The notes: generated from the sequence alone by a model not told the origin. Numbered from the stretch's first letter, positions 4,278 through 52,197 are shown. The stretch is DNA of 64,000 bases from Euryarchaeota archaeon UBA605 (GCA_002504905.1 DATY01000029.1:78306-142305), one strand, 5' to 3'. A program made the numbers and translations.

Positions 4278-4301
4278 TAAAGAAAGTCATCTCGAAGGTA
4301 C

Positions 4302-4910: not shown

Positions 4911-4919
4911 ATAATAAGA

Positions 4920-6858: not shown

Positions 6859-6932
6859 GGGCGTCCCAAGGAGAGTTTAATTTTCAATCCTCTGAACCAC
6901 ACCTTGAAACACTGGAGTTTAGACGAGTTAAC

Positions 6933-7835: not shown

Positions 7836-8015
7836 TTACTCTTCTTCATCATTTGAATTATAACCACATTTGCCGCAGGATTTGCGATCTTCATGGATTG
7901 CCAAGAATACACCTGGGCCACAACCAGGCTCAGGACAAAACTCCGCCCGTTCTAGTTTGTCGCCATTAATCTTGTATTTTGACCACTTAGACTTTGGATT
8001 AGGTCCTTCTGCCAT
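7836..8015 (-). CDS. rps27ae: ribosomal protein S27ae (eS31), 59 aa; not in ORF track (<60 aa)
   Basis: Translated by hand: [59 protein letters not shown] with the C4 zinc finger; its ATG overlaps the S24e stop (TAATG). Confidence 0.8.
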
Positions 8016-9225: not shown

Positions 9226-9359
9226 GTATAAGCGCAACGGATGAAAAATGACTTCGGAAAATCAGATTTACCCCACAGACCGTAGGTCTGGATGATAGTT
9301 TAGTGCGAATGTTCAAGTGGGTATTGAACCCCATTTAGACCCTGATGCGAGGGTTCACT

Positions 9360-12300
9360 ATGTCAAATCAATTAAACAAAGTTACTATTTGTTTGGTAAT
9401 GACATCTCTATTAGTGCTAATGCCTCATTCAGGATTATTATCAAATTATGGAGACTATAGTGATGAAATTAAAGAAAAAAGAATTAACTCATCTTCTTCT
9501 GATTCTGATTCGTTATGGGTAGATGGTGGGCAACCTTGGCCCCAGCCAGGTAGAACTTCTGGTAGAGAATCCACTCCGCCCAATCATGGACCTGATGGAG
9601 GAGCAGGATTGGGTGCTCCAGATAATATTACAGAATTACAGTCGATAGTAGACCCTGTAATCAACTGGCAATATAGCAATTATATTTATTCTACAGATGC
9701 GTTTGCTACTCCAATTGCTGACCTATCTGAATCAATTGTATCCGACGAAGATTCTGATGAAAGATGTGGAGGAGACTCATTATTCACTGTAATCATACAA
9801 ACAGAAGATGTTGGAGGAAGCTTGCATAGTTTCCTTAGAATAATAGAAGGAGAAGATGCAGATCTTGCCTGGGAAGTTGACCTAGGAGAAACTGATGAAA
9901 TTAAGGCATCTCCAGTAGTTGTAGATTTAGACTATGATGGGAAGCAAGAAATTCTTGTTTCCTTTGATTTAAGTGGAACATTCTATGTCAAAGGTTATTC
10001 TCCTGAATTAGTTTGTTCAGTAACCGGTTGGTCACCAGGAGGTAGTCATGTCACTGAATTATTGTGGACATACTCAGATTCTACGTTAATGATTGGAAGT
10101 ACTGATGGCCCTTACGTCAGTAATGCGTATGGCGGACACAAGCCTACTGCCCAGCCTCTACTTGCAGATCTAGACTTGGATGGAACAGCGGAATTAGTAC
10201 TTTCATTAATTGAGAAAAATTCTGAAGAACCAGTAATCTTAGCATTAGATATCACCGGGACTTCTGCAACCTCCATATGGGAGAAAACATTGGATAAAGG
10301 AACACATCCATCAGATCCAACATTTGTACAAACTGATGAAAATACTGCTTTCGTGATTTTAACTTCTGTTCAGAGTTCTACAAGTGCAATGTGGCTGTGG
10401 AAACTTGATGCAGCGGATGGTGACTCAAATTGGGATGGGAAATCATTGGAAAATCTAAATAATTTTGATTCCAATGTACCTCACATTAGGCTTCCAGGAC
10501 CTGTGATTGCAAATTTAGATTCTGATGACGCTATGGAGATGGTGGTTACAATACCATCTGATTTTGACGGTAGTAGTGCAGCATATGGTGCTGAATATTA
10601 CGGTATTGAAATTAGCGATGGTACAAAAATTTGGGATTTTGAGGCCTCAAACGGTTATGCGGATTCTGCACCTATAGTTATTGATACTGATGAAGACGGA
10701 GATCATGACAGAGTTTGTTGGATTACTTGGACTACTAACAGTTGGAACACGAATAGAGATGGTTTCGCAGGATGTCATGATGACACTGACGGAACCAATC
10801 CTCAAGAAGCATGGAGTAAAGAAATTCTTGAACCACAAGGAGCGCCGAATGACGGAATTGCAGTTTCTTCACCTATTTGGATGAATATAGATGACTCTGA
10901 CGAACCAGAATTAATTGTGCCATATGGTAGAGAATTAAGGGCTTATGATGGAGAATTAGGAACTATGGCTGGAATAAACTCTTTCTGGAGTGAACCAATT
11001 GCAATTAACCATAGACTTTGGGCATCACCATCATTAGCAGATATTGATGGAGATGCAACTTTAGATTTAATTCTTGGAGATACCGTCATTTCAAATCAAG
11101 TAGCTGATATAAGGCCTCAATTGGATGGAAGAAGCATAGAGTTCAGCCCAGTTGCTCCAGACCCAGGAGAAATGGTAACTATCACAGTATCTTTTGAAAA
11201 TTCAGGTACCGCAGAAACTGATGAGGATTCAGATGTTATCTTATATGCTGATAATCAGATCATAGCTCAAGAAAGATTTGGGAATATGCAACCTGTTGAT
11301 CCAACAGGTTCAGGTTCTCTATCTACATTTACTGTAGAATGGTCAGGAAATCTAGGTGAACATGAATTCAAACTAGTTTTAGACCCTTACAGGAACATTA
11401 CACAATCTAGATACGATAATGATATTCATATTACGACATTGAGCATAGTTAATCCATATAATGCTAGTTTTGAGATCCCCACTGAACCAACCGTTGTCAC
11501 ACCCGGTGAAAACTCACTATTTACTCCAAATATTCGTTCTACAGGTAGGTTAGCAGGAATATGGAGCCTATCCGTAGACGACACAAATCTACCGGAAGGA
11601 TGGACGTGGAGCGATGAAACTACTGATGGCTTAGATTCAATTCAGATAGGAGTTGGGCAAATATGGAGTCCGAATCTGAGAATATTTGCACCGAGTGATG
11701 CATTAGGTTCTGACTCGGGTTACTTGACCCTAACATTAACTTTAGATGACGATAACAATGTTTCAATCTCTGCACTAGCAGCGGTGGAAGCAAATAGAAC
11801 TAGAGGTCTCTCAATTAGAGGGCCCGATGGGACTGCAAATACTCATGGATATGGTCTAACTGGAGAATACGCAGAGGCATGGATACTAATTCATAATTTA
11901 GGAAATGCATTGGAAAATCAAATTATTATGTCTTGGGATACAACTTCATGGGGTAATGATCTGAAATTATATGATTTAGAAGGAAATCAAATTCCTGCTC
12001 TAACTCTAGAACCAGATGAGATAATTTATGTCACTGCAAGACTGGATGTACCTAGTAATGCAAATTTGGGAGATTCAGTTAGTACACCTCTAGAAATGTG
12101 TGTTAGCGAGAATATATGTCAAACAATCGATATCTCATTCACCGCTACTGGCGTGACCACAGATGTACATCAGAGAACCGTTCCCGGCAGGACATTGTCA
12201 TGGGATATTTCAGCAGACATGCCTGTTGGGGAGAATCAACTTGAATGGTCTATGAATGATGCAGGATTAGTGATTCCAGGATGGTCTTGGAGTACGACCG

Positions 12301-16625: not shown

Positions 16626-17501
16626 CTATCTAAACATAGATTCAGTAGCCTTAATTGTATTTGTCATAAGCATTGCAATGGTCATTGGACCTACTCCTCC
16701 AGGCACTGGAGTAATGTGACCTGCAACATTAAAAGCGCCTGAATCTACATCACCAGCTAATCTATATCCACTTTTCCTAGAAGAATCTTGTATACGATTA
16801 ATTCCTACATCTATTACAGTAGCACCTGGCTTTATCCAATCAGACTTTACAAACTCAGGCCTACCTATTGCAGCAACTACCAAATCTGCCTCTCTACAGA
16901 TATCAGGAAGATTTTTTGTTCTTGAATGAGCGATTGTTACTGTTGCATCGATTCCTCTTTGGGCGAGAAGAATTGACATTGGCATACCTACGATTCTGGA
17001 TCGACCAATGACCAGAGCATTTTTTCCAGATAAATCAATATTTGAAAGTTCCAAAATCTTCATTATTCCAGCAGGAGTACATGGTAAAAGACCCGAAGAG
17101 TCACCTTGAACTAATCTACCTAGATTCATCTTATGAAATCCATCTACATCTTTTTCAGGTAAAATTGCATCTGTAATCATTGATTCATTAATTCCTTCCG
17201 GAAGAGGACTTTGAACCAAGATTCCATGCACTGAATTATCAGAATTGAGCTTATGAATTATAGCTAAAATTTCTTCCTCTGATATTTCACCATCTAAGTC
17301 AATTCTAGTACTTTTGATACCACATCTTTCACAAGCCATCTCTTTGTTCCTAACATAAACATGGCTGGCTGGATCATCCCCAACAATAACTACTGCTAAA
17401 TGAGGAAATATATCCCTACTTTGAAGATTAATTATTTGATTATGGAGTTGTTCTTCTATCATACGGCCTATTTTTTTTCCGTCTAAAACCGTCGCGGACA
17501 T
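16626..17501 (-). CDS. folD: bifunctional methylenetetrahydrofolate dehydrogenase/cyclohydrolase
   Basis: MSATVLDGKKIG...; the ORF-track N-terminal extension (to 17630) overlaps tRNA-Thr and is spurious, so the start was trimmed to the ATG at 17499-17501. Confidence 0.85.
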   Translation of the reverse strand: MSATVLDGKKIGRMIEEQLHNQIINLQSRDIFPHLAVVIVGDDPASHVYVRNKEMACERCGIKSTRIDLDGEISEEEILAIIHKLNSDNSVHGILVQSPLPEGINESMITDAILPEKDVDGFHKMNLGRLVQGDSSGLLPCTPAGIMKILELSNIDLSGKNALVIGRSRIVGMPMSILLAQRGIDATVTIAHSRTKNLPDICREADLVVAAIGRPEFVKSDWIKPGATVIDVGINRIQDSSRKSGYRLAGDVDSGAFNVAGHITPVPGGVGPMTIAMLMTNTIKATESMFR

Positions 17502-17569
17502 AATCGATTCGGAAGGCTCTATACTCTTCACGTTGACGGAAGAGAATCTTGCAGATGATGGATTGTTAT

Positions 17570-17646
<77 letters not shown>

Positions 17647-18222: not shown

Positions 18223-19716
18223 ATGACACTAGGAAATAATGAGAAAAAAATGCTACGTTGTATGCGTTCTAAAGAAAATCATATTTGGACTCTTGAAGAG
18301 ATATTAGAAATCACAAAATGGAAAGATCAAGTTCACGTTGCTGGTGCTGGAAAATCACTAGATGAACACGAATTTGTAGAAACTACTGAGAGACATTTGA
18401 AATTTATTACTCTGGGTTCAGAAGGACTTAATGCCTTGGAAAATGAGTTACTTGAGAAAAGAATTTGGGAGTGGATACTTTCACAAAAAGAAAAAAATAG
18501 GACAATGAATGAATTATTCAAAGCAGGTTTTGAGAGACATGAAGCTGGGCCCGGGATAGGACTGTTGAAATCAATAGGGGTATCTATTGAAAAAGGAATT
18601 TTTACTTTTGTTAACGAAGAAGAAATTACAATAAAAATTTCTGAACGGGTTGATTTTATTAAAAAAATATCTATGGGAAAATTAGATTACAATGATTTAG
18701 ATAAAGGATTAATTGAACATTTTTCTGGCAGAAAGAATTTGATTAATATCGAAGAAAATATTTTAAGAGAATGGAAACTTACCGAAAAAGGGATTAATAT
18801 TTCTGAAAATGAGTTAGAAGAAGTTCAACTAATTGGAGAGATTACCCCAGAATTTTTACAAAATGAAGGTTGGAAAAACGCATCATACAAAGAATTTGAT
18901 ATCAATGCAGAAACTCCCATTCCTGTCGGAGGAAGACCACATCCAATGCAATCTCTAATTGAAAGGATAAGGTCGGTTTTCTTAGAGATGGGTTTCTCAG
19001 AAATAGAAGGAAATTATGTTCAATCAGCAGGTTGGAATATGGATGCTCTTTTTATTCCTCAATCACATCCAGCAAGAACTATGCAAGATACTTTCTATCT
19101 TGATGAGCCAGAAAAAATAGATATTCCTGAGGAAATGTTAGAATTATGGGCATCAGTTCATGAAAATGGGCACGATACTGGAAGTTTAGGTTGGGGTTCA
19201 AAATTTGATAAAGAAGAGGCGAAAAAAGGACTATTAAGAACTCATACAACTGTTAATACTGTGAAATATATCGCGGAAAATCCAGTGAGCCCCTCACGTG
19301 TATTTGGAATTGGAAGAGTATTCAGGCAAGAAACAATCGACAGAACGCATTTACCCGAATTTCATCAAATCGAAGGAATAATTCATGAGCCGAATGCGAG
19401 TCTACCAATGTTAATCTCAACTTTGAAAACATTCTATTCAAAAATGGGCTATCCTAATGTAAGAGTTAGGCCAGCATATTTCCCATACACTGAACCAAGT
19501 GTGGAAGTAGAGGTATATTGGAGAGGTAAATGGTTAGAATTGGGTGGTGCTGGAATTTTTAGACCAGAAGTAACAGAACCTCTTGGTAGCGAATGGCCTG
19601 TTTGCGCCTGGGGAATGGGCCTGGAAAGGTTAGCTATGCTAGTTCTGGAGTTAGACGATATTCGTGAACTTTACCAACCCGACTTAGAGCGATTAAGTCG
19701 AATGCCAATTCTTTGA
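18223..19716 (+). CDS. pheS: phenylalanine--tRNA ligase alpha subunit (archaeal type)
   Basis: Class II aaRS motifs FLEMGFSEIEG, HPARTMQDTFYL, GRVFRQE..DRTHLPEFHQIEG; SD GGAGGGG upstream. Confidence 0.85.
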   Translation: MTLGNNEKKMLRCMRSKENHIWTLEEILEITKWKDQVHVAGAGKSLDEHEFVETTERHLKFITLGSEGLNALENELLEKRIWEWILSQKEKNRTMNELFKAGFERHEAGPGIGLLKSIGVSIEKGIFTFVNEEEITIKISERVDFIKKISMGKLDYNDLDKGLIEHFSGRKNLINIEENILREWKLTEKGINISENELEEVQLIGEITPEFLQNEGWKNASYKEFDINAETPIPVGGRPHPMQSLIERIRSVFLEMGFSEIEGNYVQSAGWNMDALFIPQSHPARTMQDTFYLDEPEKIDIPEEMLELWASVHENGHDTGSLGWGSKFDKEEAKKGLLRTHTTVNTVKYIAENPVSPSRVFGIGRVFRQETIDRTHLPEFHQIEGIIHEPNASLPMLISTLKTFYSKMGYPNVRVRPAYFPYTEPSVEVEVYWRGKWLELGGAGIFRPEVTEPLGSEWPVCAWGMGLERLAMLVLELDDIRELYQPDLERLSRMPIL

Positions 19717-21400
19717 AGAAAAATCTTGTTCTGAAAATTAAGATTAACATAGAGAAAATAATAATTCCACTACTTGGAGGATTTGATTTCCAAGGAATTG
19801 TAACTAAGTTATTTTCAATAGACTGTTCTTCATTCCCATTTGGATCCCCATAATTACAAGATTCATCATCTAAATCCGCTTCTTGATCGAAGTTAGATGC
19901 ACTAGGATCTGTACAACCATATTTAATTCCCTCAAGGAAAAATGATACGACATTATCAAACTCTCTATCCGATGAATAAGGAAGATGATGTCCCGCATCA
20001 CCAACTAAATGTGTCACATTAGAAAATACATTCACTAATTCTGTGGAACCGTATCCAAACCAATCGTCACCCTCGCCTTCAAAAACCAGTGCTGGTGAAT
20101 CAAAAGGTGCCTCAACTTCAATTGTTTGATTAACTCCTTGATGTCCGGTTTCAAGATAACCATTAAACAAGATTACTTTTTCAAATTGAACATCAGAATA
20201 TGCAAGATAGATTACTGACATTGCGGCACCCTGTGAATAACCAAGAATTCCATAAAATGGACCGTTACTATCAATGAAATTATCTAAGTAAGTTATCGAT
20301 GTATCTGCCCACATTGGGTCATCGGTTCCTTGCTCTTTACCGTCAGGCGGATCGCGGACCCAGACTCCACCATCTTCAGGAGCTTCGGCAAAAATAAACT
20401 CGAAATCAGGAAGAGCTTCCATCAAATCTTGCATACCTGGTTGAGATTCAAAATCAGATACGCTTTCTCCACCTCCGTGAAGACTGAGAATCTTCAATCT
20501 GGTTGGTTGATGATAACTACATGAGCCATCATCTTCTGTAGCAGCAATATCAAAATTATTAGCTGTTGAATCAGTACATCCGAATACTTCTTCTTGACTG
20601 TAGGTGCAAGTACCGTCATCTTCTGTAGCAGCACTATCAAAATTATTGGCTGTTGAATCAGTACATCCTAATACAGAGTCAATAATATTGATATTTATAA
20701 TTTCAAGGTCAGAAGAAATTTCCCAAGTACCACATTCCCCCAGTATTGAGATAGATACATTGGACTCAATTATGGAAGGACCCCAAGAAAATGTCCCACT
20801 TTCTGAAAATGGTAATTTGAGGCTGAATTGATTAACATCTCCATCTGACCAAACTAAATCGCATGTTCCAAGATTTGGATGAACCAATGTACCATTTATT
20901 GTAACTGATTCTCCTTCAGAAATACTCAATTCGTTATTTTCTAATATCATAATTGTAGGGTCTTCATAGGGATAATGTATTGAAAATGTGGATGAAAGTC
21001 TTGATTCTTGGCCTAAAGAATCGGTAACAACTATCTTGAAAGAATGAGAACCAACACCAGTCTCAGAAATATCTACAACAATTACTCCTGTACTATTCGG
21101 TTCAATATTCAAAGGAGAACCGTCCAGAGTCGCTTCAATTTGTAGAGATGACATGTCTTCATCACTTACTGAAACATAGAGGGAATCTAAACTTCCAATC
21201 AAGATACTATCAGGAATCTCAGAATCAATTACAGGAGCAAGATTAACACCATCCGATTCAAAGTCATAGAAAAGTCCTCCAACTAAAACACTACCAATCA
21301 TTAATCCGGCTAAGAAAAGGGATCTTGCGGCTCCTTCATCATCATTCTTCGAACCTCTCATGATATAGTGTGTTATCAGTTTGCTATTAAACAATAGCAA
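19634..21400 (-). CDS. secreted/membrane-anchored alpha/beta hydrolase (FSH1-like serine hydrolase) with Cys-bracketed repeat modules
   Basis: N-terminal signal anchor; nucleophile elbow GYSQGA; two tandem 29-aa repeats GCTDSTANNFD[SI]AATEDDG[TS]C plus a diverged third copy; C-terminal hydrophobic segment. Overlaps the pheS 3' end convergently by 83 nt. Confidence 0.55.
   Translation of the reverse strand: MLLFNSKLITHYIMRGSKNDDEGAARSLFLAGLMIGSVLVGGLFYDFESDGVNLAPVIDSEIPDSILIGSLDSLYVSVSDEDMSSLQIEATLDGSPLNIEPNSTGVIVVDISETGVGSHSFKIVVTDSLGQESRLSSTFSIHYPYEDPTIMILENNELSISEGESVTINGTLVHPNLGTCDLVWSDGDVNQFSLKLPFSESGTFSWGPSIIESNVSISILGECGTWEISSDLEIININIIDSVLGCTDSTANNFDSAATEDDGTCTYSQEEVFGCTDSTANNFDIAATEDDGSCSYHQPTRLKILSLHGGGESVSDFESQPGMQDLMEALPDFEFIFAEAPEDGGVWVRDPPDGKEQGTDDPMWADTSITYLDNFIDSNGPFYGILGYSQGAAMSVIYLAYSDVQFEKVILFNGYLETGHQGVNQTIEVEAPFDSPALVFEGEGDDWFGYGSTELVNVFSNVTHLVGDAGHHLPYSSDREFDNVVSFFLEGIKYGCTDPSASNFDQEADLDDESCNYGDPNGNEEQSIENNLVTIPWKSNPPSSGIIIFSMLILIFRTRFFFKELAFDLIALSRVGKVHEYRLTPELA
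20526..20674 (-). repeat. intragenic tandem repeat, 2 units x 87 nt (29 aa)
   Basis: Units 20526..20587 and 20613..20674 differ at only a few positions. Confidence 0.7.
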
Positions 21401-21436
21401 TAATCAACTCAAGTAAAATTAGTTATATACGTATTT

Positions 21437-22558
21437 TTATTCGGAAGAAAGAGCTTTGATATCAAGAAGAAACTCTTGAACATCCCAGTTAATTCCAGTC
21501 CAAGCAACTCTCTTCCTAGTTTCTTTATCAAGAATAAACGTGACTGTAGAATGACCAACTCCGTACTCACCTAAAGATACTTCATGAGGATTAATTGAGT
21601 CTGAAGAGTTTCTATCTTCTGTTCCAATAACCATACATCCTAGCCAATTTCCATCGGGTCTTTCATATCCTTCGTCACACATACAATGTGCACTAGAACC
21701 TGATCCCATAATCCATCCCTTTCCATTACAGTCAACTCCTGGTGAAAGACTTGATAGATTGGAATTACTGGAAACCCATGCCAAATGAGTATTTATCTCA
21801 ACGTCAATAGAAGAAATATTCTGAGATTCTGAGAGGGACCAAGTTTGATTGAGATTGTCCCAATAATGAAGTAACCATGACCAACTAGAGTTAGTTGTCC
21901 AGTCTCCAATAGTTCCTTCATTATGAGTTAAATTATAAGTAATATTTGCATTATTGAATACATAGTCTGCAAAATCATCTCCATCAATGTAGCATCTATT
22001 TTCAGATATCTCGCCGCGACAAGGAGTATCAATAACTGTGGAGGAATTATCAGGATAAAGGATTGAAAATCTATTGGTAGATTCATCCGGAGGCTGACTG
22101 GCTTCAATATGGTCATTATCAACAACAATATTCCAACTGTTCCAGACATTTACTAGAGTGGAGGGGTTTTCCGCTGAAAGGTGGTCCCATTCGTACCCAT
22201 TTGCCTCAGTCCATTGAGCAAATCTTTCCACTGTATCCCTCGCAGGATCAATAGTAATTGATAAAATTTCAACATCATCGGAATACTCACCTAAGTTTTC
22301 GTGTACCCAAGCCAAATTAGCTGAAATTGCAAGACAAATATCTGGACAAGATGTATAAATGAAAGCGACTACTACTACCTTACCGTAATAATCAGAAAGC
22401 GTAACTGATTCACCGTCCTGATTCAATAATGTGAAATCAGGTGCATCTGGGGGGTTTTTGTATTCTGTACCATACAATTCTAAATTATTTGTTGACTGTA
22501 AACAACCAGAGAAAAATAAACATGATGCAATTAGAATAACAAGTATCTTTTTCATCAA
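21437..22558 (-). CDS. SCO1/SenC family copper chaperone (thioredoxin fold) with large insertion, lipoprotein-like signal
   Basis: GKVVVVAFIYTSCPDICLAISANLAWV (CxxxC); N-terminus ends FFSGC (lipobox-like). Confidence 0.7.
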   Translation of the reverse strand: MMKKILVILIASCLFFSGCLQSTNNLELYGTEYKNPPDAPDFTLLNQDGESVTLSDYYGKVVVVAFIYTSCPDICLAISANLAWVHENLGEYSDDVEILSITIDPARDTVERFAQWTEANGYEWDHLSAENPSTLVNVWNSWNIVVDNDHIEASQPPDESTNRFSILYPDNSSTVIDTPCRGEISENRCYIDGDDFADYVFNNANITYNLTHNEGTIGDWTTNSSWSWLLHYWDNLNQTWSLSESQNISSIDVEINTHLAWVSSNSNLSSLSPGVDCNGKGWIMGSGSSAHCMCDEGYERPDGNWLGCMVIGTEDRNSSDSINPHEVSLGEYGVGHSTVTFILDKETRKRVAWTGINWDVQEFLLDIKALSSE

Positions 22559-22567
22559 AACACCACT

Positions 22568-23296
22568 TTATTCATCTAATAGTAATTTAATATCTTCAAG
22601 AACTAGTTCTGCATTCCAGGCATTATCTGCCCACCAAACTCGCTGATTCATTTCTCTATCAACGATTATTGTCCCCGTAGTATGATCTACCCAATAGCTA
22701 AGTGGATGATGCATGGTTTGTACCTGGCTAGGTTCTTTTTGAGATTCACTACAACCTTCATTATCTACTTCTTCACCAGCAGTAGTATTTGCACATGTAT
22801 CAAATCCATCTGCAACTCCATCACCGTCTAAGTCTGAATCATAAGTTGCTAGACCTACCTCGAAATTTCTCCAAACTGGTTCAATTACCTCCAATTCTCC
22901 GGTTAGATGGGGCCAATCTAATCCTCTAGCATTTGAATAGTTATCCAGAACAGATGAATTATCAGTCCAAGGATCTACTGTAACGGTTAGAATCTGCACC
23001 TCAGTTCGATAAAGGTCACCTAGCAATTGAGCAACATAAGCTAAATTGGCACTGACTACTGGACAAACATCCGGACAACGAGTGAAAAGGAATGCCACAA
23101 CAACAACATCTCCTTCATAATCATAGAAATTAAAATCATTACCTTCTTCATCTGTTAAGGTGAAATCTTCGGCAGGAATTGAAGGAGAAATATCTTCGCC
23201 ATAGAAAATATCTACTTCTTGATTACCTATACAACCAGAAGTGACAAAACATAGAGCCATTAAAATTGCAAACAAATTTCTCGACATTTTAGCCAT
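22568..23296 (-). CDS. SCO1/SenC family copper chaperone
   Basis: GDVVVVAFLFTRCPDVCPVVSANLAYV plus a downstream conserved His (WVDHTTGTIIVD); lipobox-like VTSGC. Confidence 0.75.
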   Translation of the reverse strand: MAKMSRNLFAILMALCFVTSGCIGNQEVDIFYGEDISPSIPAEDFTLTDEEGNDFNFYDYEGDVVVVAFLFTRCPDVCPVVSANLAYVAQLLGDLYRTEVQILTVTVDPWTDNSSVLDNYSNARGLDWPHLTGELEVIEPVWRNFEVGLATYDSDLDGDGVADGFDTCANTTAGEEVDNEGCSESQKEPSQVQTMHHPLSYWVDHTTGTIIVDREMNQRVWWADNAWNAELVLEDIKLLLDE

Positions 23297-23312
23297 TACT
23301 CCCGTATATCCT

Positions 23313-23855
23313 CTATGTCCGTCCCTTTTTTACAATTCGACTGATTGCTGCTACAACAAAAAGAACTAATCCAACCCAAAGGAGTATCATATTTGATTCT
23401 GAAGAATTTGAAACTTCGTTACCAGAATTACCGCTTGGCAATACGAAATTGGGAGTTGTTTCATTGTGATTATCTAGAATAATTGTGATATTTATGGTGT
23501 GCCAAAGTGAACCATTAGAGTATACCAACGCTTGATAATTACCTGCGGACCAGTTCAGAGGGTCTAACCATAATTGGCATTCATCCTCATTTCCTGTACT
23601 ATTGTAAGGTTGAGCAGTACAAGACCAATTATGAGTGGAATTTTTAGGATTCTCCATCTCAATTGTTCTTTCTAAGTCCATGACAACGTTGTTGAAAATT
23701 ATACTATCATTTTGTGTTACTTGGGCATCATCTGGTTGGATTGAGCTATTTCTCATGATAAATTGGAACGTATTGGCACCGTGAGCATCAACTATTGGAT
23801 TGATGAATAAAATAATGACAAAAACTACAATTGAAACATTTTTCATCGAACTCAC
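23313..23855 (-). CDS. small secreted protein with C-terminal TM anchor; mature N-terminus predicted to be His (possible His-brace copper site)
   Basis: Signal peptide ...NPIVDA|HGANTF; C-terminal ILLWVGLVLFVVAAISRIVKKGRT. Confidence 0.45.
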   Translation of the reverse strand: MSSMKNVSIVVFVIILFINPIVDAHGANTFQFIMRNSSIQPDDAQVTQNDSIIFNNVVMDLERTIEMENPKNSTHNWSCTAQPYNSTGNEDECQLWLDPLNWSAGNYQALVYSNGSLWHTINITIILDNHNETTPNFVLPSGNSGNEVSNSSESNMILLWVGLVLFVVAAISRIVKKGRT

Positions 23856-23864
23856 CTAATCAAT

Positions 23865-25823
23865 TCATTCAGAATCCCATAGTGGTGGATAATCAAATCT
23901 TGGATCATAGTCTTCGTCAAATTGAACAACATAGACTCCTGTGACCATATCTGAAACGAAAACGAATCCTCTAGGGTCATATTGTAATCCCCAATTAAAT
24001 GGAATCATACAAGATGCCCAGCAATCCGCCATATCATACCCCATTTCAGTGGCTGGATCATCAATCCAAGGTGGACCGGCTGGAAGATAATAGCCAATGG
24101 TCTTAGTTTCGGCTAATTCTGAAATTGCTTGGAATCCTCTATCCGGCTCTGGAACTCCGTTTTCCCACACTATTTCATCCCAAATATCACCATGATCAGT
24201 TACCCAAGCTCCAGCATGATAGTGAGTGTAGTATACATGCCCTGATGGGCCAGTATCGCCATTATGCGGACTGAAAATATATCCACCAGGTATCCAATGC
24301 TGTGGATGTGAACCATTTCCTTTCATTCCCTCTCCAGGAAGCTTCCATTTTGAGACTAAGAAAGGTTCTGCAGGATCTGTTGTATCAATTGTCCATACGT
24401 AACCGGTATGATTCTCATTGGAACCGTATTCAGGAGCAATGTATGTGTAGTGTCTCCAGTTAACTCCATAGACTGGGTCTTCAAATCCAGTTCCACAGTT
24501 AGATGGCCAATTTTCTACAGGATCGAATACACTTATTCCTGAACAAATTAAGTAATCATTTGGAACTGCATAATGGATGTTATCATTTCCTTGATTGGCG
24601 TCGAGCCATTCGTCAGCATCCATATTTGCATGGCCACCACCTTCTGGACCATACCATCCATCATCAGCAGATGGGCAGCCCATCCAACGACCGACCTCAG
24701 GAGGCCAATTAATTCCTAAAGGATCTGGAACTTGAGGAGGAGTACTAACATCTACTAATCTCAAACCAGCACCCCAATAAGAAACTGCAAGTAATCTCTG
24801 CTGTGTTATAGGATGGACAAAGTAAACATTATCATGATTGAATATTGAACCACCACAGGTAGTGTATGGCTCTGGAGTGTAACCTCCCCAGCGAACTATT
24901 TCGCGATCAGAAGAATTTTCTTGTTCTTCATTTTGATTAGGATCCCACGAAGTAAAACCTCTTGGAACGTAAAATACTTGAGTTCCTTTGTAGAATGTAC
25001 CACTACTACCCTCGACCATTTCTGGATAAGGATCTGCTCCGAAAAGGAACAAATGACAATCTGCTTCATCCCACTGATTGACTGGATCAAAAGTAGGGTT
25101 CCAATCGCAATAAATTGCCAAATCTTGATTATGGAATCCTGCAGGAGGATTATTCCATTCTGCAACCTTCACCGGACTAGTTTTATCTCCAACATAAATC
25201 ACATCCATTCGATTTGCTCCACTATTAGCATCATCATCATTTGGAATAGGATCAAGTTCACTGTTTGTTAGTTCATGATTAACTAAAACCCAATTGTTAT
25301 CTTTAGTGACCTTGATATCAATCATTCTAGCTATTTCTGCATAATAAGTAGAAAGCATTTTTATGTTATTGGGATCACTAATATCGAGAATCTCAAATTG
25401 ATTGTAACTTGAAACATAAGCGTAACATCCACCAGTTCCGTCAGCATATATTTCACAATCTTCCATGAAATTACCTTCAATTGTTATTTCAGAGTTATCT
25501 CCAGGAGTAGGGCCTACATTCTTGTATTCATCTGAGCAAGGTCTTCCTGCAACATTATCTAATTCAGCAGGAGGTTTTTCGTTTCCATCGCAATTAAGAT
25601 TATGATAATCGATTAGTTTTGCATTGGCAGTGGATAATCTGTGAGCTAGCAGATCATTATGTGAGTGATTTTCATCTTCAATCTCTGTTACAGGATCAAT
25701 CCATTCCACATTTGCGTCTTCATCAGAGGAATCATCTCCAAGCATCGACATACACCCGGATAAGGGAGTTATTAGCATTAGAAAAACCATAAGAAACATT
25801 GGAAAATTAGAAATCCGTGACAT
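23865..25823 (-). CDS. secreted LVIVD-repeat beta-propeller-like protein, His-rich (paralog B)
   Basis: LVIVD-like strands EILDISD, LRLVDVS, VYVVQFD. Motifs HWIPGG..FSPHNGD and YHAGAW shared with paralog A. Lipobox-like LSGC. Confidence 0.55.
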   Translation of the reverse strand: MSRISNFPMFLMVFLMLITPLSGCMSMLGDDSSDEDANVEWIDPVTEIEDENHSHNDLLAHRLSTANAKLIDYHNLNCDGNEKPPAELDNVAGRPCSDEYKNVGPTPGDNSEITIEGNFMEDCEIYADGTGGCYAYVSSYNQFEILDISDPNNIKMLSTYYAEIARMIDIKVTKDNNWVLVNHELTNSELDPIPNDDDANSGANRMDVIYVGDKTSPVKVAEWNNPPAGFHNQDLAIYCDWNPTFDPVNQWDEADCHLFLFGADPYPEMVEGSSGTFYKGTQVFYVPRGFTSWDPNQNEEQENSSDREIVRWGGYTPEPYTTCGGSIFNHDNVYFVHPITQQRLLAVSYWGAGLRLVDVSTPPQVPDPLGINWPPEVGRWMGCPSADDGWYGPEGGGHANMDADEWLDANQGNDNIHYAVPNDYLICSGISVFDPVENWPSNCGTGFEDPVYGVNWRHYTYIAPEYGSNENHTGYVWTIDTTDPAEPFLVSKWKLPGEGMKGNGSHPQHWIPGGYIFSPHNGDTGPSGHVYYTHYHAGAWVTDHGDIWDEIVWENGVPEPDRGFQAISELAETKTIGYYLPAGPPWIDDPATEMGYDMADCWASCMIPFNWGLQYDPRGFVFVSDMVTGVYVVQFDEDYDPRFDYPPLWDSE

Positions 25824-25892
25824 CGCAAAACCTCGTACTAATTATTTCACACAAACTTCTACTTGTGAATGCTGCGGTGGTGATGTTAGAAA

Positions 25893-27650
25893 TTAACTGA
25901 CGTGATACGGTTTATCTATATCCAATTGAACAATATATAATCCCGTTGTAATGCAAGAAAGATATGTATATCCATTATGATATTCTGCGGCCCAAATAAA
26001 TGGAGTCCAACCAAAGTCATAGTATGAGCTTGAAAGAGGAATTCCATCTTGTCCATGAGGTAAATGATACCCAATAGTGGATACAGAATGTACTTCAGTT
26101 CTATTCAAATCCGGATTTAGAGCTTCTAACATTAGAGTCTCAATATCGATTATCCATAATCCTGCATGGTAACTAGAAAGATAAATTCTACCATCCCAAT
26201 TACCACCGAGGCTCTGATCGGGTAAGCCCAGTGCTGAATTGGTTTCGAAAATTTGCGCATCTGAATTATGAGGGCTGAAAAGTAACCATTCTTCACCACC
26301 AGGAATATGATGTTGTTCAGCAAAAGGAATCTCCCAACTATGAATTATTTTTGGTAGGAATCTGACTTGACCATTTAACATTTCAAACTCAGTCGTATCT
26401 AACAAATATCCAAGACCTGTTCCCACAGTGGTCTCTAAAACTTCAGTTGCAAGGAATGTTAAATGCATTTTACCTGCTGGATAACCTAAATGAGAAGCAT
26501 CAACCATTTCATCCATTGGCTCTGCATAATGAATGTATGAAGCTCTGCCTCCATTCTCATTCCCTGTACATCCACAATCAATCTGCCCGTCTTCATCAAG
26601 GTCTGCAAACTCCATCCATTGACCAACCTCTGGGGCTCTCCAATTACAAGTTAGTTGAGTACCTAATGTTGCAGCACATCCGCCGGCAATAAATGCATAT
26701 TCTATTGGTGAGTTCTGTGGGTGAGGAACGTCACTGACATCGAATATTCTTAACCCGGCTTCCCAATATGCGCCGTAAATATACGTCTTACCATATCTAG
26801 GGTCTTGTTGATCTTCTCCTGGCCAAGTTTGTACAGTCATGTCATGAATATATATCCAGCCACCTAATGTATTTTGCCAGTTAACTTCTGCTTCACCAAC
26901 CTTGAGAATTCGAGGGCTATCACTTGGACCATCGAAATTAAGATGAGCTATTGTAATTCCCCCACATGCATCACCTTGACCAATATCGCACTGCTCATAA
27001 TCAGGATTTGCAACAAAGATATACCACTCATTATCAATCATATGAGTATACAAATTATGAGGACCACTTGGATGATCAGCATCATACCATGCATCGACAT
27101 AGGTTGGGTTATATTTATCTGAAACATCAATTAAAGTTACTGTAACTTGAGCAGGATCTCCCCATTCACCAACGTTTGGATCTGCATTACCTGGATCTAC
27201 TAACTGATTCTGTACTATTACATATTCATCTCCATTATACTGTAAATATTTTACATCTAAGACTTGAGTATTTGGATCCACATAAACTCCAGTAACGGTA
27301 GTATTCTCTGGATTTGTAACATCTACAATATGCATCTCTGACCAGCCAGCGATATATGCATATGTGCCACCATCTGGAGATTCCGCAACCTGAACTTCAG
27401 CATTCCCAGGTGCAGTCAATTGATTAAAAGAAATTGGTTGAATATTATCTGTATACATTATGTGCTGGCTAGCATTTCTATGATCATGCCCCTCATCTTG
27501 CATGAGTGGATCAATAATTGAAAAGTTACCCTCTACTGATTCAGAAGTCTCATCGGAAAGGAAAATTGCAGCTACACTAGCTGTTAATAAAAAGAAGATT
27601 AGGACGCCTGCTAAAGCAACTCTACGGTTATCCATGTAGGTCGGAAGCAA
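25893..27650 (-). CDS. secreted LVIVD-repeat beta-propeller-like protein, His-rich (paralog A)
   Basis: VHIVDVTN, LRIFDVSD, LWIIDIE, LYIVQLD; HHIPGG..FSPHNSD; SYHAGLW; signal peptide. Confidence 0.55.
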   Translation of the reverse strand: MLPTYMDNRRVALAGVLIFFLLTASVAAIFLSDETSESVEGNFSIIDPLMQDEGHDHRNASQHIMYTDNIQPISFNQLTAPGNAEVQVAESPDGGTYAYIAGWSEMHIVDVTNPENTTVTGVYVDPNTQVLDVKYLQYNGDEYVIVQNQLVDPGNADPNVGEWGDPAQVTVTLIDVSDKYNPTYVDAWYDADHPSGPHNLYTHMIDNEWYIFVANPDYEQCDIGQGDACGGITIAHLNFDGPSDSPRILKVGEAEVNWQNTLGGWIYIHDMTVQTWPGEDQQDPRYGKTYIYGAYWEAGLRIFDVSDVPHPQNSPIEYAFIAGGCAATLGTQLTCNWRAPEVGQWMEFADLDEDGQIDCGCTGNENGGRASYIHYAEPMDEMVDASHLGYPAGKMHLTFLATEVLETTVGTGLGYLLDTTEFEMLNGQVRFLPKIIHSWEIPFAEQHHIPGGEEWLLFSPHNSDAQIFETNSALGLPDQSLGGNWDGRIYLSSYHAGLWIIDIETLMLEALNPDLNRTEVHSVSTIGYHLPHGQDGIPLSSSYYDFGWTPFIWAAEYHNGYTYLSCITTGLYIVQLDIDKPYHVS

Positions 27651-27656
27651 CCAGTC

Positions 27657-28316
27657 ATGTTGAAGTCATCGGAGTGCATGGGATGGACTGTGAGATACCA
27701 TCGGGCGATTGTAATTGGAGTATTATTTACTCTTTTATCATCATCAATTGCTTGTGCACATGACCAAAAAGAATACAATATTTTAATCAAAGAAAATGGT
27801 TTGACTCCTCCTTCTGTAAATCAGGGAGTATTGGTTGAAACAGATACATTATTTTTTAGAAATGTAGACAATAGAGAAAATGTAACACATAGAATTTTAG
27901 TAGATGCAGATCAAGATGGCTTATTCGAGGGGATTGATGACTTCGAAACGAGTTGGATGTCAAGCTCTTGTGAACTTAATGAAACTGGTGAAAAAGTAAA
28001 TCCAGATTGTGAGCAGCAAGCATTAATTCTATTAGATCCTTCAAACAGACTTTTACCAGGAAATATCTCGATGATACATGAAATAAAAGAGATTAATCAA
28101 TCTACGAATGAAACAACTAAAATTACATTGGTGAACTTCTATGTTAATTTCGCGCCAGATATCCATGAAGTAGATGAGAACCTACCTACAGGGAATAGTG
28201 AAGAAGAAATAATAGAAAGAAGTGCTAAAGAACAAGTTCTAGAATTAATAATTTTTATTTCTTTATTATGTGCATTTTTTGTAGGTACAGAGCTAATGAA
28301 ATCGAATAAGGATTAG
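27657..28316 (+). CDS. small secreted protein with C-terminal TM anchor; mature N-terminus predicted His
   Basis: Signal peptide ...SSSIACA|HDQKEY; C-terminal LELIIFISLLCAFFVGTELM. Divergent from paralog A with only a 6-bp gap as called, so true starts are probably internal. Confidence 0.45.
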   Translation: MLKSSECMGWTVRYHRAIVIGVLFTLLSSSIACAHDQKEYNILIKENGLTPPSVNQGVLVETDTLFFRNVDNRENVTHRILVDADQDGLFEGIDDFETSWMSSSCELNETGEKVNPDCEQQALILLDPSNRLLPGNISMIHEIKEINQSTNETTKITLVNFYVNFAPDIHEVDENLPTGNSEEEIIERSAKEQVLELIIFISLLCAFFVGTELMKSNKD

Positions 28317-30697: not shown

Positions 30698-32602
30698 TCA
30701 AACAGTTTGATTGAGCCAGTCCAAACAAGACTGATGGGTACATCTCGGTGGATCGAACAATAGTTTTTCCTCTGGATGAATTATATCTAGGAATAGATTG
30801 GAACTAGAACTTTCAGAAACTTCAACAATTGAGCTTGTAGATGCTGGTAGGTAGTCCTCTCCAGTACTAGCAAGTGACAGACGAATAGTATGGCCGGCTT
30901 GTATTTGTACATCCATGGCAAAGAACTCCATCTTGGCATTAATTGTTTCAAAAATAGGTAACCAAGTCTGTTCCTGATTCCCTCCCTCGTGATATCTCAA
31001 ATCCATAATAGCATGCCCAATGTGAATACAATTTCCTTCTTCGGAACAGTCTTCTAATAATGCATAGATTTGCCCGCCAACTGTTGCTGTAGAAACGTCA
31101 ATGTGTAATCTGGGTAAACCTGAAATCCAAATATCTTCAGTAAATTCTTCAGTCTCATAAATTGGTCCAAAGTTACCATTGGGAAGTATTGTAGTTGTAC
31201 CTCCTGCTACATTAATCAATCCACCTCCAAGATCTAATGAGATTGTTTCCATGTCTTGTGGAGGGTATCTTTCTTCAATTCTCCATTGGCCTTGATTAGA
31301 TTGTATCTCAACAAATAATCCTGGCTTATCACCAACTCCTTTAAGATACCAGTCAAACCATTCTAGTAAATCTTGCATCCAGTCAAATCTAACCATTTGA
31401 GGGTACGCCTCTCTACCTCTGCCTTCTCCCGAGCGGTCAAAATGATAATCAGGTCTATCTGGATAATCGTGGTCCCATTGACCGAATAATCCCTTAGATT
31501 CAATACCTGCATCAATTAATTGATTTATTACTGGGATAGCCATATGAGGATCAACATTCCAGTCATGCATTCCTTGAATGAGATACACAGAACCTTCATA
31601 ATTTTCTAATACTCTGTCTAGAAAATATCTCTCTTCCCAATATGTTCCTGCAAACTCACCGCCCCACATGTAAGCTGCAACTCCAGTACCCGGACCGATA
31701 ATATAATCTGGACAAACATTTCCAATATCTTCCTGGTCTCCATCAAATCCATATGACCCATAAACTCCATTATGCATTATCGGAGCTCTCGCTTCACTAC
31801 TACCATTTTTCCACATTAATTCCATTACCCCAATCAAACCAGAAATTGGCACAATTGTCTTAAGATATTCATTTCCAAATGTGGCTGCCTGCCACGGAGT
31901 AGAACCATCATATGATTTACCAATCATTGATACACCACCATTACTCCATTCTTGAGTACCTAGCCAAGTTACAGCGGCATCAACCCCAAGTTGTTCCGCA
32001 TTTCCCATCAAGTCCATACAATGATTCGAACGTCCGGTACCCATTACTGAGACTTGGGCAAAAGCATATCCGTGAGGTAAAATCTGATCTATTATCATTT
32101 GACCAAGCCATGTACCTGGAACTTCTATTGATGGAGTGTCGACGCTGACTTCATCAAAATAAGGTCCAAATTCTGCAATAACTGGTACTGTTACTCCTTC
32201 GGGCACATCTGGAAGCCAAACTGCAAGACTAACAACACCATTAGGAGCTGAACCTCCTTCGCTAAGTGGTAATTCAAAATTCACGAAATGATGAGTTGAG
32301 CCCCATTCATTATCAGTTTCCAGTAAATCATACTCGCCAAATTCCATGACAAATCCATTCGCCTGATCTGTGTTATACGGCCACTCCGACCTTTCCCATA
32401 CTGGAACTCTTTCATAAATCCCTAAATCTTTTTTGATTTCATCTACTACATCGTCAATTATCCAACCCTGTAGAGATAACAGTAACATGATTATTGTCAT
32501 TGACATTGCAACTGCTAATAATTTAGCATTAGAATTAGTAAAATTTTTAAATTTTTCAGAAAGAGGGGTTGATTTGTCTCCAACTGGAACTCCCTCTATC
32601 AT
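30698..32602 (-). CDS. S15-family peptidase / CocE-NonD family hydrolase (Xaa-Pro dipeptidyl-peptidase-like), secreted
   Basis: Nucleophile elbow MIGKSYDGS (GxSYxG); N-terminal signal anchor; ~630 aa with a C-terminal beta-sandwich typical of the family. Confidence 0.7.
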   Translation of the reverse strand: MIEGVPVGDKSTPLSEKFKNFTNSNAKLLAVAMSMTIIMLLLSLQGWIIDDVVDEIKKDLGIYERVPVWERSEWPYNTDQANGFVMEFGEYDLLETDNEWGSTHHFVNFELPLSEGGSAPNGVVSLAVWLPDVPEGVTVPVIAEFGPYFDEVSVDTPSIEVPGTWLGQMIIDQILPHGYAFAQVSVMGTGRSNHCMDLMGNAEQLGVDAAVTWLGTQEWSNGGVSMIGKSYDGSTPWQAATFGNEYLKTIVPISGLIGVMELMWKNGSSEARAPIMHNGVYGSYGFDGDQEDIGNVCPDYIIGPGTGVAAYMWGGEFAGTYWEERYFLDRVLENYEGSVYLIQGMHDWNVDPHMAIPVINQLIDAGIESKGLFGQWDHDYPDRPDYHFDRSGEGRGREAYPQMVRFDWMQDLLEWFDWYLKGVGDKPGLFVEIQSNQGQWRIEERYPPQDMETISLDLGGGLINVAGGTTTILPNGNFGPIYETEEFTEDIWISGLPRLHIDVSTATVGGQIYALLEDCSEEGNCIHIGHAIMDLRYHEGGNQEQTWLPIFETINAKMEFFAMDVQIQAGHTIRLSLASTGEDYLPASTSSIVEVSESSSSNLFLDIIHPEEKLLFDPPRCTHQSCLDWLNQTV

Positions 32603-44288: not shown

Positions 44289-44378
44289 CCGTTTTGAATT
44301 GTTCGATTGGAGAAGTTGTTACATTTGCCATTACGAGACATTAACAATACCTTTCTCTTCGGACACTCTGGTGAGATA

Positions 44379-47105: not shown

Positions 47106-47191
47106 AGCAATCCTTCCGAGTCTCGCGCAAAGCAATGGGGTTATGATATCTACTATAGAATTAGGTTTAACCTGCCGATAATTAAAACGCA

Positions 47192-48307: not shown

Positions 48308-48319
48308 TTAATCACCAAA

Positions 48320-48865: not shown

Positions 48866-48934
48866 TACTACGAGAGAAAGATAACCACAGATGACAATAA
48901 ACAGGCCTAAACCTACATCCGTTTTCGCAAGACT

Positions 48935-50152: not shown

Positions 50153-50211
50153 GGTTAGATTTTGACTAGTCCAATCAGGAACATTCATGTGGCCTCTATT
50201 ATCGCCCGCAA

Positions 50212-51393: not shown

Positions 51394-51432
51394 AACATAC
51401 TATAAAATTGATAAAAAAAAAGAGGGGAAAAA

Positions 51433-52188: not shown

Positions 52189-52197
52189 GGTGGAAAA

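Follow-up and report, generated by a model that had tools for sequence, protein, structure and literature searches.

A conserved gene cluster of marine archaea suggests a new kind of copper enzyme, with two putative surface metal enzymes and four proteins of copper-binding type

Introduction

The sites of SBP56, thiocyanate dehydrogenase and NosZ are carried on propellers and are rich in histidine, with Asp, Glu and Lys in addition, and the mtoX gene has been reported adjacent to SCO genes, as an earlier note on this DNA pointed out. Hydrolase centres of the classical PTE and urease types carry a carbamylated lysine. The Cu(II) motif of CopC consists of an N-terminal His and a DxH. The closest relative of the propellers described here is Sb-PTE, a phosphotriesterase of Sphingobium sp. 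TCM1, with a binuclear Mn site whose ligands we take to be H258, H317, H389, E407 and H475 together with the bridging Glu201 (Mabanglo et al., 2016). In FtrB, a protein with a cupredoxin domain, Cu(II) is proposed to bind at a C-terminal Asp/His pair, and the mutant D118A did not bind Cu (PMC11966278).

A compact and conserved unit

The cluster lies in a window (the whole stretch of DNA that was analysed, 64 kb in length) and comprises seven ORFs, all of them found in the sequence where the earlier note had placed them and with the gaps that it gave:

PropA, 25893-27650, minus strand: propeller protein, ORF of 585 aa (from the database start M6, at 27635, the gene is 25893..27635 and encodes 580 aa)
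PropB, 23865-25823, minus strand: propeller protein, 652 aa
small1, 23313-23855, minus strand: small cupredoxin-like protein, 180 aa
ScoB, 22568-23296, minus strand: SCO1/SenC protein, 242 aa
ScoA, 21437-22558, minus strand: SCO1/SenC protein, 373 aa
FSH1-type serine hydrolase, 19634-21400, minus strand: 588 aa
small2, 27657-28316, plus strand: small cupredoxin-like protein, 219 aa (likely start M8, at 27678)

The six genes on the minus strand are separated by 69, 9, 16, 9 and 36 bp. In 66-69 species the distance was measured between each stop codon and the codon for the lipobox Cys or His1 of the protein that follows; the medians are 52-71 nt, against 138 nt from PropA to PropB. The 52-71 nt are about what the signal peptide alone takes up, and genes packed in this way leave no space for promoters of their own between PropB, small1, ScoB and ScoA. 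The single compact unit proposed in the earlier note was borne out by the synteny across related genomes to which it had pointed: the core order, small2 followed by PropA-PropB-small1-ScoB-ScoA, was preserved in 80 of 80 GTDB species loci of the Thalassarchaeaceae. This figure counts the species with sufficiently long loci, and the cluster is present in at least 80 species. The Thalassarchaeaceae are the Marine Group IIb (MGIIb) archaea, an abundant, uncultured marine group. Most loci have small2 adjoining PropA (exceptions include L058 and L080). The flanks vary among the 80 species loci, with loss of FSH1, an ahcY-metK insertion and differing upstream genes. The flank genes pheS and folD are also syntenic, so that part of the conservation of the cluster may be simple vertical inheritance.

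The FSH1-type serine hydrolase, which is membrane-anchored and matches Pfam FSH1 over residues 301-477 (PF03959; E = 8.9e-16, 58.6 bits vs a cut-off of 21), had been described as the end of the unit. It does not belong to the core: it is missing from about ten species loci (L014-L019, L057, L064, L074 and L081), a YHYH protein takes its place in L002, and it is best described as a variable accessory gene outside the conserved core.

Elsewhere, members of the propeller family stand alone next to housekeeping genes, and no SCO or cupredoxin was found near propellers outside the MGIIb-type cluster (L084-L087 and 33 soil-metagenome loci), L088 excepted. The soil loci represent a distant propeller subfamily without SCO1, and a PropB ortholog (48% identical) also occurs without SCO1. 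Propellers without SCO1 in relatives, which the earlier note had named as one half of an argument against its copper reading (the other half being a link of the SCO1 genes to a heme-copper oxidase or nosZ elsewhere), have thus been found, among them this ortholog and the distant subfamily. The contig L088 (47% GC) keeps the small2-PropA pair, with a PropA that is 65% identical and an M28 peptidase as the next gene, and is a possible exception to the stand-alone propellers outside the Thalassarchaeaceae. Neither cox nor nosZ appeared in the scan of the 64-kb window, which covered the ORFs of 120 aa or more as far as 59.4 kb, and no Ftr1/EfeU, CopD or P-type ATPase permease appeared in the cluster and its immediate neighbours or in the rest of the scanned window.

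Propellers related to Sb-PTE

PropA and PropB are paralogs (26% identical, E = 7e-34) with one detected LVIVD repeat each (PF08309), above the gathering score in both cases (31.7 and 23.3 bits vs a cut-off of 20.2), in agreement with the two large LVIVD-like paralogs of the earlier note. The AF2 model of PropA (pLDDT 80, pTM 0.85), a kind of check that the note had proposed, is seven-bladed and has an N-terminal helix at residues 3-25. PropA is anchored N-terminally in the membrane and PropB through a lipobox with a conserved Cys24 (lipoboxes and cleavage sites were read from the sequence by eye). The top Foldseek match of PropA is 5HRM (1.8e-12), and the profile of the propeller family retrieves 5HRM from the PDB sequences at E = 3.1e-22, Sb-PTE being the sole match of that search. 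The two proteins, which the earlier note had placed in no characterised cuproenzyme family that could be recognised, have seven blades and are homologous to the Sphingobium phosphotriesterase Sb-PTE, a haloalkylphosphorus hydrolase. Membership of SBP56, NosZ or thiocyanate dehydrogenase was also considered; there was no Pfam match, including for the SBP56 and NosZ propellers that the earlier note had in mind, and none of the three appeared in the PDB profile search or among the best 50 Foldseek matches.

In order to locate the metal site we have used the ligands of Sb-PTE as a reference; each of the six numbered positions is an E or an H in the reconstructed Sb-PTE chain. H258, H317, H389, E407 and H475 of Sb-PTE align with H193, H264, H369, E398 and H456 of PropA, all invariant or near-invariant, whereas the bridging Glu201 aligns with a near-invariant lysine (K129). 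The bridging carboxylate was not found at this position; a conserved D127 stands two residues upstream, with an uncertainty of about one residue in the alignment. As aligned, then, the propellers retain five of the six binuclear-metal ligands of Sb-PTE. Four more His of PropA (H50, H52, H58 and H490) are kept, together with the ligand set, in 83/83 orthologs. The set of PropB consists of K171, H231, H330, H417, E465 and H520, plus H53, H55, H61 and H536, and these residues are conserved in 69-70 of the 70 orthologs.

The four additional His, three of them in an N-terminal HxHx5H motif and the fourth in YHAG, are by this alignment specific to the family. Of the 25 family representatives, 21 have H50, H52, H58 and H490, or 22 with the inclusion of P0221, which has Ser at position 50, and the loss of these His is linked: the two or three representatives without the N-terminal His also lack H490. 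Judging by the symmetry of the blade repeats, H490 would stand on strand B of blade 6 where the metal ligand E398 (E407 of Sb-PTE) stands in blade 5. The conserved multi-His set that had been noticed in the two propellers stands up to the comparison of orthologs. Among the shared His motifs listed at the time, FSPHN and YHAG are family-wide; H[HW]IPGG lies in an insertion and lacks conservation across the wider family, and no more than 56/83 PropA orthologs have the second His of the motif. Conserved Cys pairs are found in the propellers as well as in the small proteins.

Partner proteins of copper type

Both small proteins have the same plan and are distant paralogs (23% identical, E = 6e-5). 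small1 consists of a signal peptide, a cupredoxin-fold domain that starts with the mature His1 and includes a C55-C69 pair, a D104-x-H106 that follows immediately on the last strand, and a C-terminal TM helix; small2 has the same H1, Cys pair, DxH and C-terminal TM helix, plus a well-conserved His in 'xHR(I/V)'. The A|H cleavage that would leave His as the first residue, already predicted in the earlier note, has an invariant context in all small1 and small2 orthologs (an alignment of 71 sequences, with the sites read by eye), and H1, D104 and H106 are invariant in the same 71 sequences, a mature N-terminal His and DxH of CopC type. The fold is a cupredoxin-like beta-sandwich closest to FtrB, EfeO and Cupredoxin_1, so that the resemblance to copper proteins seen earlier holds. 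The gathering score of Cupredoxin_1 (PF13473) was not reached (best E = 0.021, with 10/65 members; 0.21 for the protein of the window), and all cupredoxins score alike against small1. Neither sequence nor structure places the small proteins in CopC (PF04234). A type-1 blue copper or CuA site was also looked for; there is no CxxH...M motif, and the only conserved Cys are those of the mid-domain C55-C69 pair. Lacking type-1 and CuA ligands, the small proteins give no indication of a classical electron-shuttle role.

ScoA and ScoB are lipoproteins that match Pfam SCO1-SenC (PF02630) at 6e-23 and 4.5e-24 (81.7 and 85.4 bits vs a cut-off of 22.8). They are 40% identical (E = 1e-30), and the N- and C-terminal parts of ScoA both align to ScoB. 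ScoA has CPDIC (C71, C75) and H336, with a Cys-rich insertion of about 170 aa before the His loop; ScoB has CPDVC (C74, C78) and H205, with a TSP3-like insertion of about 41 aa just before the His loop, and aligns to the Thermus Sco 2k6v, including the His of 'YLVDHT'. Both proteins keep an intact CxxxC...H copper triad, invariant in 63-64 of 64 orthologs for ScoA and in 67 orthologs for ScoB. The earlier identification of an SCO1/SenC pair was right as to the family and the CxxxC; the motif given for it, CPD(I/V)CP, is not that of ScoA, which reads CPDICL.

Interpretation and alternatives

Taking together the gene order, the folds, the homology to Sb-PTE, the conservation of the ligands and the SCO and cupredoxin motifs, the cluster suggests a new kind of copper enzyme, in which two putative surface metal enzymes are accompanied by four proteins of copper-binding type. 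The reading that we prefer, tentatively and with confidence a little short of even, is that of a pair of surface multi-histidine metalloenzymes whose metallation or servicing falls to dedicated copper proteins. The catalytic parts would be PropA and PropB, membrane-anchored seven-bladed propellers on the Sb-PTE scaffold. Their putative metal centre would lie on the propeller axis and be made up of an innermost-strand His from each of four blades and a Glu, with the near-invariant Lys of both proteins at the position of the bridging Glu, and the HxHx5H and YHAG His would surround this core as a second layer, which suggests a metal cluster larger than or different from the Mn2 of Sb-PTE. Each propeller gene adjoins one for a predicted membrane-anchored cupredoxin-like protein of EfeO/FtrB type, in which a Cu(II) site would be built from the N-terminal His of the mature protein and the C-terminal DxH. 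The two SCO1/SenC lipoproteins with their triads would complete the unit. The SCO and cupredoxin-like proteins may supply the propellers with copper or with electrons, and the propellers would be copper-dependent extracellular enzymes acting on some substrate. This supposes copper as the metal, an interaction between the proteins and redox rather than hydrolytic chemistry.

The homologous site of Sb-PTE, by analogy, speaks against copper, as it binds Mn2 and is hydrolytic, and the ligand set is nearly unchanged. Because the conserved core His and Glu are the ligands of that binuclear Mn site, a non-copper hydrolase is a serious alternative, even if we think it on balance unlikely: the propellers would be ordinary binuclear Mn, Zn or Fe metallohydrolases (phosphoesterase- or lactonase-like) degrading extracellular organic matter, and the copper genes, co-located only, would serve general copper trafficking, for example to the CuA of cytochrome oxidase or to blue copper proteins. 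Homology to Sb-PTE in both sequence and fold with five of six ligands retained, the relatives standing alone beside housekeeping genes, and the nearby surface hydrolases (FSH1 and an S15 peptidase) all fit such an explanation, and the Lys at the bridging position may recall the carbamylated Lys of PTE- and urease-type centres. What it leaves aside is the tight packing across about 67 species, without space for promoters from PropB to ScoA, the cupredoxin-like paralog that each propeller has beside it (small2 and PropA are still paired in L088), and the four extra co-varying His, which would be superfluous for a Mn2 site of Sb-PTE type.

A module mainly for the acquisition or handling of copper (or iron), with the propellers as accessory metal-binding or reductase components, seems to us improbable. 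The small proteins, CopC- or FtrB/EfeO-like, would capture Cu(II) or oxidise Fe(II), and the SCO proteins would serve as carriers of Cu(I) or as thiol-disulfide reductases. The H1 and DxH do match the Cu(II) motif of CopC, the conserved Cys pairs could require an SCO-type reductase, and the nearest folds are the cupredoxin domains of FtrB and EfeO, which belong to systems for Fe(II) uptake (PMC11966278). However, no permease of the types looked for accompanies the cluster in the scanned window, and the propellers carry a complete ligand set of catalytic, binuclear type. Very improbable, in our estimate, are propellers that act as distant functional analogs of SBP56 methanethiol oxidase, thiocyanate dehydrogenase or NosZ. 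A conserved set of many His together with Asp, Glu and Lys, borne by a propeller of seven blades, resembles those sites in composition, and the SCO adjacency of mtoX points the same way, but Pfam, the PDB profile search and the best 50 Foldseek matches gave nothing in that direction, the cupredoxins differ little in their scores against small1, and the one-to-one mapping of ligands onto Sb-PTE suggests that the positions differ from those of CuZ, TcDH and SBP56.

The preferred reading of serviced surface metalloenzymes can be taken one step further, to a point that we regard as doubtful. The Sb-PTE scaffold may have been rebuilt in archaea as a new class of extracellular multi-copper enzyme, in which two or three Cu would be bound on the propeller axis by eight His, four of them inherited and four new. 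Loading of the metal or provision of electrons would be the task of dedicated membrane-anchored, cupredoxin-like histidine-brace partners and of specialised SCO chaperones with their insertions. If true, the cluster would be an analog, "split" and of independent evolutionary origin, of the architecture of nitrous-oxide reductase, and would endow one of the most abundant groups of marine archaea with a surface activity on an oceanic substrate.

Comparison with described systems

The likeness to NosZ is one of architecture only (a propeller of seven blades, each contributing roughly one axial His, a cupredoxin module and accessory Cu chaperones); neither Pfam nor the PDB profile search reveals a sequence relationship, the propeller ligands map onto Sb-PTE, and the cupredoxin partner is here a separate protein without CuA ligands. 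With CopC and other histidine-brace Cu(II) proteins the small proteins have in common the mature N-terminal His and DxH, a small Greek-key beta-sandwich and export. The EfeO/FtrB cupredoxin-like domains (Cupredoxin_1; 8VUK, 7WGU, 4HCF) likewise have no type-1 His-Cys-His-Met site, and they end in a conserved Asp/His pair, D118/H121 in FtrB (PMC11966278), to which the DxH of the small proteins may correspond; small1 and small2 differ in their invariant mature N-terminal His, in the C-terminal TM anchor, in the spacing of the pair (DxH vs DxxH) and in the absence of an Ftr1/EfeU permease partner. ScoA and ScoB share with described SCO1/SenC proteins (Thermus Sco 2K6V, human SCO1, B. subtilis Sco) the thioredoxin fold, the CxxxC and downstream His and the extracytoplasmic anchoring, and differ in being tandem paralogs, each with a large insertion before the His loop, and in having neither cox nor nosZ among the scanned ORFs of the window. 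Sb-PTE (5HRM, 5IOJ) has the same seven-bladed LVIVD-type propeller, with colinear blade order and five ligands in common. PropA departs from it in having K129 in place of the bridging Glu201, and both archaeal propellers differ in their four additional His, in being membrane-anchored surface proteins and in being encoded, in MGIIb, together with SCO and cupredoxin-like genes.

Gene content and conservation of the cluster

An earlier note had proposed an extracellular copper enzyme operon in this region, and the ORF map reproduces its layout of six minus-strand genes separated by 69, 9, 16, 9 and 36 bp, with a divergent small gene beside them. The anatomy of the cluster is firmly established:

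19634-21400, minus strand, FSH1-like hydrolase gene (FSH1)
21437-22558, minus strand, ScoA (SCO1/SenC)
22568-23296, minus strand, ScoB (SCO1/SenC)
23313-23855, minus strand, small1 (cupredoxin-like)
23865-25823, minus strand, PropB (anchored LVIVD propeller)
25893-27635, minus strand, PropA (anchored LVIVD propeller; residues numbered from M6)
27657-28316, plus strand, small2 (cupredoxin-like)

Pfam recognizes SCO1/SenC in two of the products (6e-23 and 4.5e-24) and LVIVD in both large proteins, with one repeat above threshold apiece. All three pairs are real paralogs, with identities of 26% between the propellers (E = 7e-34), 40% between the SCO proteins and 23% between small1 and small2 (E = 6e-5). 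Every protein of the six-protein core module (propellers, small proteins and SCO proteins) is annotated as hypothetical or generic, and near-identical copies, from a first homolog search that gave 95-100% identical matches only, come from MAGs labelled Poseidoniales, Thalassarchaeaceae or 'Euryarchaeota archaeon', which assigns the window to Marine Group IIb.

A scan of the genome collection returned 405 relatives; synteny rests on the best 80 of these, all from MGIIb (Thalassarchaeaceae/Marine Group II) species with PropA identities of 73-97%. The core module is kept in all of these best 80 species-level loci, and the order PropA-PropB-small1-ScoB-ScoA holds in every locus of sufficient length, with stop-to-landmark distances that leave room for signal peptides only. 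small2 is divergent and adjoins PropA in most loci, the exceptions being L058 and L080. In L080, genes for adenosylhomocysteinase (ahcY), a methyltransferase and SAM synthetase (metK), recognized by eye from translations, lie between the two (4059-7924), so small2 need not adjoin PropA; a comparable gap, ~2.9 kb long, is present in L058. In the window only ~42 bp separate the probable starts of PropA and its divergent neighbour small2 (27635-27678), so that two archaeal promoters would have to overlap or sit inside coding regions; this points to leaderless transcripts.

The flanks of the cluster are variable, and the upstream genes differ among loci. The hydrolase that was thought to end the operon does have an FSH1 domain in the window (Pfam 9e-16), but it is absent or replaced in several relative loci; in one close relative (L002, 17073-18173) a YHYH-domain protein (PF14240, 5.5e-30), putatively metal-binding and secreted, takes its place. 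The FSH1 protein has N-terminal Ig-like regions, a C-terminal hydrophobic tail and three ~20-aa repeats, 'GCTD(S/P)(T/S)A(N/S)NFD…DD(G/E)(T/S)C', that flank the hydrolase domain (residues ~240-300 and 495-520). On the flank, pheS and folD are syntenic too. The 3' ends of FSH1 (minus) and pheS (plus) overlap convergently by 83 bp (19634-19716), likewise in the relative locus L001, which may represent a real shared terminator region or an over-called FSH1 C-terminus. Within 16626-17646 the longest folD ORF (TTG start at 17630) overlaps a tRNA-Thr (17570-17646); since relatives are called at 298 aa, the true folD start is further downstream.

Other genes of the window
9345-15008, surface protein of 1887 aa (domains: FG-GAP, CARDB, NEW3-type Ig), ~5 kb away from the cluster
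2032-3495, subtilase
30698-32602, S15 peptidase
44307-53115, genes including two acyl-CoA dehydrogenases, ETF beta and alpha subunits and HMG-CoA synthase

The large surface protein, the subtilase and the S15 peptidase are consistent with a cell surface that carries many degradative proteins. The genes at 44307-53115 make up a fatty-acid/lipid catabolism neighbourhood of the kind usual in MGII, with no relation to the propeller cluster. Neither cox nor nosZ was found when window ORFs of 120 aa or more were scanned as far as 59.4 kb.

Small proteins and SCO proteins

Orthologs of the small proteins were gathered from 80 species loci and aligned as 71 predicted mature sequences of small1 and small2; the alignment used for structure prediction was rebuilt from search matches. 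In all 71 sequences a His follows an AxA-type cleavage site and would thus be the first mature residue, as the earlier note had predicted. Besides this His, both families have invariant Cys (C55 and C69) and D104-x-H106, and both end in a C-terminal TM helix. Among known folds, small1 is closest to FtrB/EfeO-type cupredoxins, followed by the NosZ CuA domain, NirK, nitrosocyanin, CupA and plastocyanins, and Cupredoxin_1 is the commonest sub-threshold Pfam match in the family (10 of 65 members). The cupredoxin fold and the H1/DxH motif are firmly established, and the alignment shows neither type-1 nor CuA ligands. For FtrB, a C-terminal Asp/His pair has been proposed to bind Cu(II), and Cu binding is lost in the D118A mutant (PMC11966278). 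An Ftr/Efe-type Fe-uptake system was rejected, no permease being found in the cluster or among the scanned ORFs of the window.

Some departures from the usual small-protein architecture were seen. One metagenomic member of the small2 family (P0271, 328 aa) is made of two small2 domains in tandem, in which a segment ahead of the DxH motif is repeated; this may reflect a true duplication or an error of assembly. In one sublineage (L058 8793-9626, L068, L069 and L080 11734-12567) small1 is ~270 aa long and carries an extra ~100-aa domain before the TM helix; within this sublineage, the 'xHR' His is missing from the small2 of L080.

Both ScoA and ScoB are lipobox proteins with CxxxC and a downstream His, invariant among orthologs, and ScoB aligns to Thermus Sco through the 'YLVDHT' His. 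There is little doubt that their SCO sites are intact. In ScoA a Cys-rich, EGF-like stretch of ~170 aa is inserted directly ahead of the loop with the Cu-ligand His; in ScoB the insertion at this point is ~41 aa long and contains a thrombospondin-type-3-like calcium motif (DxDxDGxxD). These insertions might mediate partner recognition.

The propellers and their metal site

The propeller family is narrow, with 235 clusters at E <= 1e-3, many of them fragments, among the 1.84 billion representatives of the 50%-clustered sequence library from which its diversity was drawn; most of the full-length relatives are lipoproteins, 440-520 aa long. Single-sequence PDB searches with PropA, and with small1, gave nothing useful. 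The view that the propellers belong to no recognizable family is wrong. Searching the PDB with the PropA model (Foldseek) gave as top match the phosphotriesterase of Sphingobium sp. TCM1 (5HRM; Sb-PTE), a haloalkylphosphorus hydrolase, and the family profile retrieved 5HRM at E = 3.1e-22 and no other PDB sequence. By sequence, the relationship is thus visible only with the family profile and not with PropA as a single query. Membership in SBP56, NosZ or TcDH was rejected on the basis of Pfam, the Foldseek top 50 and the PDB profile search. Twin-arginine export of PropA ('NRRV') was set aside, the RR being missing in a 65%-identical homolog (P0121).

In an alignment of 25 propeller members the invariant or near-invariant residues comprise a core of D127, K129, H193, H264-D265, H369, E398 and H456, together with the N-terminal motif H50-x-H52-x5-H58 and H490 (in YHAG). 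Sb-PTE has a binuclear Mn centre on its propeller axis, whose ligands are reported to be E201 (bridging), H258, H317, H389, E407 and H475 (Mabanglo et al. 2016). The ligand positions were cross-checked by chain offset: at +87, all six land on E or H in the HMMER-reconstructed chain. HMMER local alignments to 5HRM gave several blade-shifted registers and were dropped for a colinear MAFFT mapping that places all ligands consistently.

Sb-PTE metal ligands and aligned PropA residues (MAFFT)
E201 (bridging): K129, near-invariant Lys
H258: H193
H317: H264
H389: H369
E407: E398
H475: H456

PropB has the same ligand set, and the twelve conserved positions are kept in 83/83 PropA and 69-70/70 PropB orthologs. 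Homology to Sb-PTE and conservation of the ligands are firmly established, and the earlier suggestion that several conserved His form a metal site on the axis appears right, judging from this mapping. Of the 25 representatives, 21-22 have the four His outside the core (H50, H52, H58 and H490), the range being due to a Ser at position 50 in P0221; P0217 and P0247 lack both the N-terminal His and H490, and P0249 keeps only H52 of the N-terminal triad and also misses H490. From repeat symmetry, H490 should face the axis beside the alpha-metal site, because its spacing from the blade-6 His (~16 residues in the core family) parallels that of E398 after the blade-5 His (~20 residues).

Outside the MGIIb-type cluster the gene context of the propellers is different. 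On a contig with 62% GC, a PropB ortholog of 48% identity is found by itself, and no SCO or cupredoxin gene was found near three other such relatives or in the 33 loci of a high-GC subfamily. Among the loci examined, only L088 (PropA 65% identical) keeps the small2-PropA pair. A 48%-GC metagenome contig (L085, 2-5199) has three tandem propeller paralogs, of which the second and third are separated by a SnoaL-like gene, and no SCO or cupredoxin gene.

Possible role of the cluster

The propellers might be non-copper hydrolases that lie beside general copper chaperones. This main rival, which we consider the less likely reading, draws on the almost complete retention of the Mn2 hydrolase site of Sb-PTE and on the fact that the propeller family stands alone elsewhere. 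The reading we tentatively favour is that the PropA/PropB module is a copper-serviced surface metalloenzyme, because four of the six core proteins are of copper type, a cupredoxin-like gene of its own adjoins each propeller gene and the metal site appears enlarged by four co-varying His. That the propeller metal is copper, that the cluster proteins are coupled and that the chemistry is redox, we infer.

Marine Group II are among the most abundant planktonic archaea, to our knowledge never cultured, and their surface enzymes decide which oceanic organic matter is usable to them. The link to the metal site of Sb-PTE gives concrete residues to mutate and frames a concrete choice between a Mn/Zn/Fe hydrolase and a copper redox enzyme. 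Should copper prove to be the metal, the cluster would provide a new cuproenzyme scaffold and a new archaeal client class for SCO chaperones, with a bearing on ocean copper demand; if not, the propellers would still define the natural, non-xenobiotic branch of the parent family of a flame-retardant-degrading phosphotriesterase.

Literature searches on LVIVD and copper and on Marine Group II and SCO1 gave nothing relevant, and no report of such a gene combination was found. All components fall into known fold families, but neither the propeller nor the small-protein family is known to have been characterized. H1 and DxH form the Cu(II) motif of CopC, which the small proteins share, but they differ from CopC in fold rank and Pfam, and membership was rejected on these grounds despite the matching motif. 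Compared with other SCO1/SenC proteins, the large insertions before the His loop of ScoA and ScoB are unusual, and the four extra His of the propellers have no counterpart in Sb-PTE.
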